From NCBI GenBank assembly GCA_965112155.1, contig OZ218103.1: a stretch of DNA of 64,000 nucleotides; one strand, 5' to 3'. Shown piece after piece: positions 32,098-59,312 of this stretch; positions within the stretch are counted from its first letter, which is position 1, and every line of letters starts with the position of its first letter. The notes below the pieces were generated by a model. That model saw nothing but the letters and a program-made list of their open reading frames with translations, made no database searches and was not told where the DNA came from. Source of the stretch: Podarcis liolepis (Eukaryota). The position numbers and the translations under genes were made by a program.

Positions 32098-32560
32098 TTA
32101 ACTAGAGGAAACACATCTTGGAAACACAAAATGAAGTTGGTAACTAGTACATCACCAATTAGACCCTGTTTTACAAGTAGAATCCAGCAATAGCTTGCCT
32201 GGTGGGGCAGAGCCATGACAATAGCTTCCTGGCAGTAGAGTCACTGTAACATACTGGGAGGAAGAAAGGCAAGGCAAGAATGAGGTCAAGGCTCTGTGGA
32301 AGCACTGGTGGAAGCAGCCTAGACACCACCCCATCTTTCCCCTACCTGGTAAACTTTAGCAATTCCATTACCAGATGTGCTGCAGTTTTGCTCCACTGAG
32401 TGAGCCACTCCTGGTGGAATCAGCTATTTCTGCACCCAATCCTCCCCTCTCCCCAAAAGCCATTGGTTCATTCTCCCCTCTTTGATGGGAGGAGTGAGTG
32501 ACCAGGTCAGACAGACAGTCTGAGGGAGGCACCAATTGCTTCTGACTGACTCTCATCCTG

Positions 32561-34036
32561 CTTGGGCTGTGCGGATCAGCTGGCGAGGGTCTTTACTAAG
32601 ATCTTCAATAAGTCCTTACACCAGTCTATTGTCCCACCCTGCCTGAAGTCGTCAACTATTGTCCCTCTGCCTAAAAAATCCACAATCAGTAGTTTGAATG
32701 ACTATAGACCAGTTGCACTGACTCCAATCATCATGAAGTGTTTTGAGAAACTGGTGCGCCGTCACATTATTTCCTGTCTTCCATCAACTTTTGACAACTA
32801 CCAGTTTGCATACAGAGCAAATAGATCCACAGAAGACGCCATCAATACCACTCTCCATGCTGCTCTGTCCCATCTGGAGCAGCCGGGGAGTTATGTGAGG
32901 CTGCTGTTTGTGGATTTTAGCTCTGCTTTTAACACTATCCTCCCCCATAGACTGGTGTCCAAGCTAGAGGCGATTGGACTCTCCAACTCCACCTGTCTCT
33001 GGGTTTTGGATTTTTTGTCAGAACGTTCCCAGAGGGTTAGAGTAGGGTCACACATGTCCACAGCCCTTAGCCTTAACACCGGCTCACCACAGGGTTGTGT
33101 GTTGAGTCCCCTGCTCTACACTCTCTATACGTATGACTGTACAGCCATCTATTCCAGCAACAAAATCATCAAGTTTGCTGATGACACTACGGTGGTAGGG
33201 CTCATTTCAGGAGGGGATGAGTCCGCCTATCGGGACGAGGTGGAGCGGCTCTGTGTTTGGTGTGGAGAGAACAATCTGGCTCTTAATACGGCTAAGACCA
33301 AGGAACTGGTGGTGGATTACAGGAAAAAAAAGGCAGACATTCAGCCCTTGTATATCAACGGGGAACGGGTGGAGAGGGTGGCGGAATTCAGGTTTTTGGG
33401 AGTAGCTATCGATCAGGGCATGACTTGGAGCGCACATACCACTGCTCTGGTGAAGAAGGCCCAGCAGAGAATTTATTTCCTCAGACTTTTAAAGAAGAAC
33501 AATCTGAGTGAGAGACTGCTGGTGTCCTTCTACCGAGGCTCCATAGAGAGCATTCTTACATACTGTATTTGTGCTTGGTTCTCCAGTTGTACAGCTAGGG
33601 AGAGGAAGGTGCTCCAGAAGGTCATAACCACAGCCCAAAGGATTATTGGTCATCCTCTCCCATCTTTGGAAGAACTGTACGGTTCCCGTTGTCTTAGGAA
33701 AGCAAATAACATCCTGCAGGATTCATCTCACCCGGGACACGGTCTGTTTGCACTACTGCCTTCTGGCAGGAGATATAGAAGCATCAAGTCAAAGACAAAT
33801 AGACTGAAAAACAGTTTCTATCCAAGAGCTGTGGCCTTTTTGAATGCTGTAACTCGATAGTGTGACCTGGGAGTTTGATGGGTGTGGTGTGGGTGTGGCT
33901 GGAATGTGGTTTGTTTGGTTGTTGTTGTTGTTTTGCTTTTGTTGTTTTAAGGGATGGCATCCAATTTCGTTGCACTTTGTGCAATGTTGCACTTGTGTAA
34001 TGACAATAAAGAATCTATTCTATTCTATTCTATTCT
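32561..34036 (+). mobile_element. Rex1/Babar non-LTR retrotransposon, 5'-truncated, young
   Basis: Uninterrupted RT frame; 3' hairpin TTGCAC-TTT-GTGCAA; AATAAA at 34005; (CTATT)n tail; possible TSD TCCTG (32556-32560 / 34037-34041). Confidence 0.92.
32562..33860 (+). CDS. Rex1/Babar reverse transcriptase, partial ORF lacking the N-terminal endonuclease (TE-encoded)
   Basis: 432-codon open frame with [33 protein letters not shown] and FLGV motifs, plus C-terminal [11 protein letters not shown]; the TTG start is the truncation point. Confidence 0.9.
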
Positions 34037-51671: not shown

Positions 51672-52284
51672 TGTGCTGGTCCTGTGGGCTAACCAAGAGG
51701 CGAGGTCCGAGTCCAGTCCGAGGTCGAAGGTGCAGTATGGAGGCAGTCCGTAAAAGTTGAAGCTGGATGCAGGGCAGGTAGTCGAGTGAGGTCAGGAGCT
51801 CTGGCAGGATAGCAGGACAGGGTTCAGGCAGGAACTAACAACCAACAAAGTTGCTCCCGCAACTAGGGACCGAGGCTGGCTGCTTTTATCTGCCCCGAGG
51901 CACAGGGTGACCCCCATCATCAGGTGACTCGCCTCTCCTGGCCTGGAGGCGAGCACTCCTCCTGCGGGAACTTAGTTCCCTCCGCCTCTGTGCCCTGAGC
52001 CTCTGCAGCTCAGGAGAAGCTGGAGGGTTACAGGACCCAGAGGCAACCTCAGCTTCCCCTGACGGGCCGAGAGTGGAGCACCTGCAGGCAATGGGTCCTC
52101 CATCCCCTCAGGAGCCAGAGCAGACTCACCTGGTGCCTGCACCTGAGGATCCAGCACAGGTGAGGACCCTTCAGGCTCAAGCTCAAGCCCCAGCCCCGGC
52201 TCAGCTGGTTCTGAAGGCGGGGACTCCTGTGCAGGCTGGGATTCCTCAGGTTCAGCATCCAAATCCAAATCCCAGGCCATCACA
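51672..52284 (-). mobile_element. Solo LTR (Gypsy- or ERV-like) carrying a U3 ORF
   Basis: TGTGATGGCC...CCAGCACA termini on the minus strand; GATAAAA TATA-like box; homologous to 58721-59312; TSD imperfect (GTATG/GTGTA). Confidence 0.8.
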
Positions 52285-58720: not shown

Positions 58721-59312
58721 TGTGATGGCCTGGGACTCGGAACCAGAGGAGACTCAGTCTGCACCGGATCCTTTGCCTCAGGTATCACCTGAACAAAGTC
58801 TGGGGCTTGATCCTGAAGAGTCCCAGTCTGCACAGGTTCCCCTGCAATAAACACCAGCTGAGCCGAGTCAGGGGCCTGAGCCTGCCCTGGCTCCAGATGC
58901 GGGGATTACCTCGTTGCCTTCACCTGGGCCATCACTTACAGCTGCCCCACTACCGGTTTGGTCAGGGGAGGCTGAGGCGGCCCCTGGGTCTAGTAACCCA
59001 CTGCCATCTCCCGAGCTGTAGAGACTAAGGTCTGAGAGAAGGAGAGACCTGAGTACTTGCAGGAGGAGTGCTTGCCTTCAGGCGAAACAGGGAGCTGAGT
59101 TGCTGGGGGATCAGGACCGCTACCTCAACAAAGATAAAAGGCTGTTGGACCCCGCCCCAGGTTGTGGGAGCAACACTGCTGTATGCCAGATCCTGCACCT
59201 GTCCTTGCCTGGTTTCCTGCCTCGTGTCCTGCCTTGGCCCTGTTGGACTGACTCATAGCGGAACCTTCAGATTCTGGACTGTGCTTCACAGGTAACCCTG
59301 TGGCCCAGCACA
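58721..59312 (+). mobile_element. Solo LTR (Gypsy- or ERV-like) carrying a U3 ORF
   Basis: TG...CA termini; perfect 5-bp TSD CACAG; GATAAAA box; homologous to 51672-52284. Confidence 0.88.

Follow-up and report, generated by a model that had tools for sequence, protein, structure and literature searches.

An LTR-encoded integrase tail with an HMGN-like motif in a chromovirus family of Podarcis lizards

What does an ATG-initiated open reading frame encode when it lies in the U3 region of a solitary long terminal repeat (LTR), with no pol match in either flank? The question is raised by solo LTR A (51672..52284, minus strand), a 613-bp TG...CA repeat in the window, by which we mean the whole 64,000-nucleotide stretch of Podarcis liolepis DNA that was analysed. 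The original prediction left two options for the frame (51886..52280, minus strand), an accessory peptide or the C-terminal end of an integrase that continues into the 3' LTR, and saw in it a motif like the nucleosome-binding core of HMGN proteins. We suggest that the window ORF is a solo-LTR copy of the C-terminal tail of a chromovirus integrase, and that its RRSARL motif would likely act as an HMGN-like arginine anchor for the nucleosomal acidic patch, alongside a chromodomain. Taken as a whole, this is a reading to which we would give an even chance.

The solo LTRs of the window and their family

The features from which the prediction had been drawn are present in the sequence. The ATG stands at LTR position 5 (52280 in copy A) and opens an acidic, proline-rich linker (52018..52280, minus strand; net dN/dS 0.26-0.68) that differs in length by whole codons between subfamilies. 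The single-nucleotide break had been placed near 52064, and we locate the frameshift near 52063-52066; left uncorrected, the ATG frame runs for 102 aa to an unrelated end, and the frame downstream of the break holds SPELQRLRAQRRRELSSRRRSARLQA. That frame includes a basic stretch, SPELQRLR..RRREL..R followed by RRSARLQA (51940..52017, minus strand, with the HMGN-like RRSARL at 51963-51946), and it ends, as predicted, at a TAA (51888-51886) within a TATA-like GATAAAA (51884..51890, minus strand) that presumably has a promoter role. The stop codon falls inside this box in subfamilies A and B and 6-12 nt before it in subfamily C. Beyond it, GCGGGAGCAA (51851..51860, minus strand) is complementary to the primer-binding site of full-length copies and would form both the 5' end and the self-primer of the element's RNA. 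Copy A itself is a dead, broken remnant of subfamily A, with a private 6-nt duplication near 52180 in addition to the frameshift and with an imperfect target-site duplication (TACAC/CATAC). Solo LTR B (58721..59312, plus strand; 592 bp) belongs to subfamily B and is more distant; it has a perfect 5-bp target-site duplication and the same tail frame, interrupted at codon 42 and by a further stop later. The window also holds, at 32550-33860 on the plus strand, a 436-aa open frame for a LINE-type reverse transcriptase (PF00078 and PF09004).

Both copies belong to a large LTR family. The 15-nt LTR start has at least 3,226 exact matches in the 1.57-Gb assembly (its reversed control has none), first-look candidates for LTR A number 2,525, and most solo copies are flanked by 5-bp target-site duplications. 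By identity and tail length, 127 collected copies fall into four groups, with tails of 129 aa (A), 142 aa (B), 116 or 108 aa (C) and about 119 aa (D). Among the 29 closest sister copies of LTR A the frame is unbroken at 126-129 aa in 17. Counted by subfamily, LTRs open as far as the basic stretch make up 38 of 51 copies in A, 27 of 42 in B, 28 of 30 in C and all four in D. Exact RRSARL occurs in 20/51 A, 10/42 B, 27/30 C and 3/4 D copies; for a motif chosen after the fact, it arises 0.4-1.6 times per 10,000 residue shuffles of three natural tails. The original prediction hinged on the family keeping an open frame and this motif, and all four subfamilies include open copies, with RRSARL present in each.

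Several of these copies are arranged in ways worth recording. One chromosome end (G000:C1:0.4-3.2 Mb) is dense in LTR starts, its first 3.2 Mb containing 38 of them when the whole genome averages about 2 per Mb; at G000:C2:104470375-104486100 (L147, L148) units with common LTRs form a tandem array with 5,005-bp spacing; and at G000:C20:12256700-12265000 (L143) a D-type solo LTR sits reversed within the integrase of a decayed A-type element. Two B-type LTRs 5.4 kb apart (L105) were considered as a B-type element and set aside, since gag and pol are absent between them.

Full-length relatives and the Pol-LTR junction

A polypurine-tract pattern with 660 overlapping matches in the genome, together with patterns for the primer-binding site, gave access to the elements from which such LTRs derive. 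Nineteen C-type elements were retrieved, 5.63-5.75 kb long, with a 5-bp duplication in 18 and with TG...CA LTR pairs differing by 0-4 mismatches, so that the family must have moved recently. Full-length relatives match Pfam families for gag (Ty3 capsid, CCHC), protease, reverse transcriptase, RNase H, integrase, SH3_Tf2-1 and, at residues 1084-1132 of a 1270-aa Pol, a chromodomain, after which 138 aa have no Pfam family. The cage residues Y1084, W1105 and Y1108 are present in Pol P0001 and make up the Y-W-Y aromatic cage by which, in the available text of PMC3605345, group I chromodomains are defined. The primer-binding site is complementary to 10 nt starting 31 nt after the TATA-like box in both copies examined, a self-priming layout described for Tf1/Sushi elements in the accessible part of PMC6317226; the full-length relatives lack an env-sized frame, and the low-depth RNA reads described below show no splice joints in them. 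The element is a Ty3/Gypsy chromovirus, not a retrovirus. In an RT/RH tree of 30 proteins that has no named reference such as Sushi-ichi (P0064, a short match, and homologues beyond the 31 chosen were left out), the element is placed next to those of Anolis (84/93, not starred) and near others from frogs and fish.

In these elements Pol continues past its chromodomain, crosses the polypurine tract, enters the frame of the LTR's ATG and ends ...VAPRRSARLKAR.... Of 39 young C-type copies, 35 (16/19 and 19/20) have an in-frame junction and 34 (15/19 and 19/20) are open as far as the motif; the three out-of-frame junctions among the 19 elements have a longer G run before the polypurine tract. The U3 thus encodes the last 108-142 residues of the integrase, namely an acidic, proline-rich linker, a basic helix-like stretch and RRSARLxA, and of the two options originally offered it is the integrase tail that the full-length relatives bear out. 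For subfamily B, the primer-binding-site pattern gave one match and the polypurine-tract pattern 11 matches at six places, two of them with integrase upstream; one of these two is in frame, with the same 120-nt spacing, and the other has a deletion at the junction. For subfamily A, the primer-binding-site pattern found no full-length element in the genome, and among 19 polypurine-tract matches a single copy has pol upstream. That copy has the same tract and 82-86% identity to the C-type Pol in its best segments; because it is decayed, with several frameshifts and a deletion at the Pol-LTR junction, read-through in subfamily A is inferred from subfamilies B and C and from selection.

The gag-pol junction of the same young elements comes in two forms. 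In 12 of 19 (L091-L110), pol is offset from gag just after a GGGAAAC stretch, which we take to be a PEG10-like slippery site; in the other seven the junction is one base longer, and gag and pol there form one continuous frame of about 1,560 aa. A stop-free frame of at least 150 aa is present in 10 of 42 flanks next to young elements; of 760 control windows drawn from 40 regions at even spacing, 63 have such a frame (Fisher p 0.003, for windows that are not independent). Of the long flank frames, 11 were scanned and 6 match Pfam families of retroelements. As weak side evidence, these flank frames suggest a chromatin-biased insertion. Young copies (L094, L100, L104, L108, L220, L221, L057, L101) often lie within open frames of Gypsy, Copia, LINE and ERV gag.

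Selection, the HMGN-like motif and competing readings

Whether the tail is maintained as protein was addressed with dN/dS from pairwise counts over 30 A, 18 B, 17 C and 4 D copies, 69 of the 127 in all. Copies were taken if their frame was open and their basic stretch still recognisable, a choice that makes three columns look more conserved than they are and excludes nonsense changes. Within groups dN/dS is 0.92 (A) and 0.67 (B); net between groups it is 0.31 (A-B), 0.51 (A-C), 0.63 (A-D), 0.26 (B-C), 0.27 (B-D) and 0.36 (C-D), with intervals below 1 in five of the six comparisons and an A-D interval that includes 1. Among the control frames, +1, +2 and two of the antisense frames range over 0.83-4.9, and the remaining antisense frame lies at 0.38-0.62, as expected from the third codon positions that it has in common with the tail frame. 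Constraint is strongest in the basic stretch (A-B net dN/dS 0.10, 0.02-0.26). There, synonymous changes are numerous in LQRLRxERRRxL; the R-R-S codons show zero between subfamilies and the motif's A codon only 2, so that the conservation of these codons could instead reflect a DNA element about 70 nt upstream of the TATA-like box. Both indels within the ORF that are common to at least three copies are of 6 nt, and 4 of 7 such indels downstream of the ORF would break a frame; among private indels within the ORF, 26 of 37 do so. The frame is under purifying selection between subfamilies and decays neutrally among solo copies; from dN/dS and the indel pattern together we conclude that it was selected as protein during replication of the element and decays once it is left in a solo LTR.

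The motif within this frame, RRSARLxA, matches the HMGN core in seven of eight residues, and this match is retained across the four subfamilies, where dS reaches up to 1.2. In HMGN proteins the acidic patch is bound by RRSARLSA, of which RRSAR is resolved by cryo-EM, and tardigrade Dsup binds it with PPRRSSRLT (PMC12487698, text available in part); yeast Dot5 has the acidic-patch motif RRSARIAT (PMC13347269, likewise). The likeness to HMGN proteins is confined to the motif, the 129-aa tail having no Pfam family, HMG14/17 included, and no PDB match under E 0.6. In a complex prediction with the genome's own H2A-H2B, the tail scored 0.45 against 0.11 for the best control, a pass that is rated weak and comes with no interface; the mark was reached by 51 of 78 solved pairs and 2 of 108 mismatched pairs, scores up to 0.60 took in only 5 of the 78 solved pairs and all 4 passing mismatches, and the runs had at least 29% of contacts in common with a partner pLDDT of at least 42. 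Likeness to solved arginine-anchor complexes may be the source of this pass, and AlphaFold 3 misplaced HMGN2 itself, according to the accessible text of PMC12487698. The HMGN likeness originally predicted thus stands in the sequence, in a region under selection as protein, and an acidic-patch role for RRSARL, for which the weak complex prediction speaks, is plausible.

Three other readings compete with the one that we favour. Pol might run on merely because no stop follows the chromodomain, with the U3 conserved as promoter DNA and the tail a tolerated filler; the R-R-S codons without synonymous variation would fit this, as would the many frog, fish and fungal homologues that also run beyond the polypurine tract, their tails varying widely in both length and content. 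We rate it improbable, since dN/dS is specific to the frame and well below 1, synonymous changes are many in the basic stretch and lengths differ by whole codons between subfamilies; the dN/dS analysis leaves it largely refuted. An accessory peptide translated separately from the LTR's ATG in the manner of Nef or Sag, via spliced or read-through RNA, is in our view very improbable. The ATG is indeed kept at position 5, and three Podarcis muralis gene models start at it: P0096 (RefSeq XP_077791897.1), which joins a B-type tail to unrelated exons, and P0095 and P0025, which join the tail to gag. These models may be prediction artefacts or rare exonisation, and TGATG ends are typical of plant CRM LTRs too (available part of PMC3059260); the ATG would be a by-product of a conserved LTR end rather than a start codon. 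Against the peptide, the frame closes within the TATA-like box or short of it, upstream of the presumed RNA start, so the LTR's own promoter would not transcribe it and it would be transcribed solely at the 3' end of genomic RNA. RNA reads from four runs with the same species label give sense coverage inside the full-length unit (depth about 1-5 in two bulk runs), with 0 splice joints in 368 reads, too shallow to exclude rare splicing, and with no start-site pile-up. No reads fall on the unique flanks of window copy A, nearly all reads there being partial matches from other copies; subfamily A decays neutrally; and a search of short proteins (70-226 aa) found no stand-alone homologue of the tail.

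The remaining alternative, and the strongest, accepts the integrase tail but takes its basic stretch for a nuclear localisation signal or a non-specific DNA-binding patch, with the HMGN likeness incidental. Arginine or lysine fills 12 of the last 35 tail residues, and the synonymous changes that kept residues lie mostly in LQRLRxERRRxL rather than in RRSA. Varied basic ends follow the chromodomain in 88 homologues, with RRSxR-type patterns in 6 of them, two being members of the Podarcis family itself. Classical nuclear localisation signals contain lysine, and the tail is arginine-only and lysine-poor, which counts against a signal of that kind, as do the retention of the seven-of-eight match over four subfamilies and the complex prediction, positive but weak. 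In favour of the alternative, NLS-like basic stretches have been noted in plant chromovirus integrases, in the accessible text of PMC3605345. On balance we regard this alternative as possible but doubtful. In the integrase-anchor reading, Pol translated through the polypurine tract into the U3 of the 3' LTR gains a tail that would remain on the mature integrase; the acidic, proline-rich part would be a flexible spacer, and RRSARL would dock on the H2A-H2B acidic patch while the chromodomain reads methylated H3K9, so that the integration complex would be held on nucleosomes by a second chromatin tether.

Relation to known systems

Relatives of the tail were found solely in Podarcis records. The nearest named protein is a P. 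muralis 'Gypsy retrotransposon integrase-like protein' (98%), with members in P. lilfordi too; a Pol-length protein search with the tail returned only two Podarcis proteins, a profile search of 1.84 billion proteins four matches, namely the three P. muralis models and P0097 (18 stretches), and an ESM Atlas search no usable match. Tails of one kind or another follow the chromodomain in many homologues, so that read-through by itself is not uncommon. The Anolis relatives lack the chromodomain and have acidic tails with SDEESFEGF at the end. In another chromovirus of the same genome (L100 flank, minus strand, about 660-1), SDDDEGSFRGF stands behind a chromodomain that has decayed. FxGF motifs of this kind (SFRGF, SFEGF) mark the acidic tails of the L100-flank element, P0081 and P0082, sister chromoviruses whose chromodomain is decayed or missing, and the L220 flank has TFHGF. 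That sister lizard chromoviruses have different motifs on acidic tails at this position counts in favour of the anchor reading. FxGF with an acidic linker is a LEDGF/HRP2-binding signature in the available part of PMC9987994, and by sequence the sister tails resemble such motifs. It is tempting, if rather less probable than not, to see the U3 of lizard chromoviruses as an exchangeable cassette of host-mimicking chromatin motifs, an HMGN mimic with a chromodomain here and acidic FxGF tails in the sisters. In a fungal-type chromovirus clade (P0037, P0042, P0045, P0051, one named Podosphaera), short tails directly behind the chromodomain end in PRRSSAR or RRSSRR and come close to Dsup's motif.

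This tail bears on what, besides the chromodomain, lets chromoviruses select and retain their target chromatin. A short, selected, LTR-encoded HMGN-like motif on the integrase of a vertebrate family that was active recently offers a cheap test of acidic-patch use by a retrotransposon; if the proposal is true, an arginine anchor of the HMGN type would be on record for a retrotransposon integrase for the first time, and a methyl-lysine chromodomain joined to an acidic-patch anchor would amount to two-point nucleosome capture. The tail also accounts for an ATG-initiated ORF in thousands of solo LTRs that gene predictors take as exons.

U3-overlapping ORFs are familiar from Nef and the MMTV Sag protein, which resemble the lizard tail in that coding sequence overlaps the U3, but the tail is part of Pol and not a separate spliced product. 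Foamy virus Gag, in its CBS, and KSHV LANA use arginine anchors, and are alike in placing a short arginine motif on the protein of a mobile element; the motif here belongs to Pol, not to Gag. With HMGN1-5, Dsup and Dot5 the tail shares RRSARLxA within a disordered, charged chain, with the three key arginines in register, although here the motif sits on a retrotransposon integrase. The open-access literature yielded nothing on an HMGN-like motif in such an integrase, and the accessible part of PMC3601003 makes no mention of one. Among chromoviruses, the Tf1/Sushi elements (GyDB V-clade: Sushi-ichi, Amn) are alike in their self-priming layout, the primer-binding site being complementary to the presumed RNA 5' end; the lizard element adds, after its chromodomain, a selected U3-encoded tail of 108-142 aa, which is absent from the available portions of Tf1/Sushi descriptions. 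Similar in plan are the plant CRM elements of group A, in which Pol extends into the 3' LTR and the CR motif is encoded by an LTR with TGATG at its start (PMC3059260, available in part), and the beet Bingo elements, whose Pol likewise extends into the 3' LTR (PMC3605345, in part). The LTR-encoded Pol end and the TGATG start are common to CRM and to the lizard family, which would thereby bring to vertebrates a layout that has promoter and targeting tail in the same stretch of DNA. They differ in that CRM is primed by tRNA-Met and the lizard element has a primer-binding site of the self-priming type, and no centromeric clustering of the latter was seen; likeness in sequence was compared by Pfam alone. 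In CRM the CR motif replaces the chromodomain, whereas the lizard element has both tail and chromodomain. The apparent novelty is that, in a vertebrate element, an intact chromodomain is followed by a long LTR-encoded tail that is under selection and carries an HMGN-like motif.
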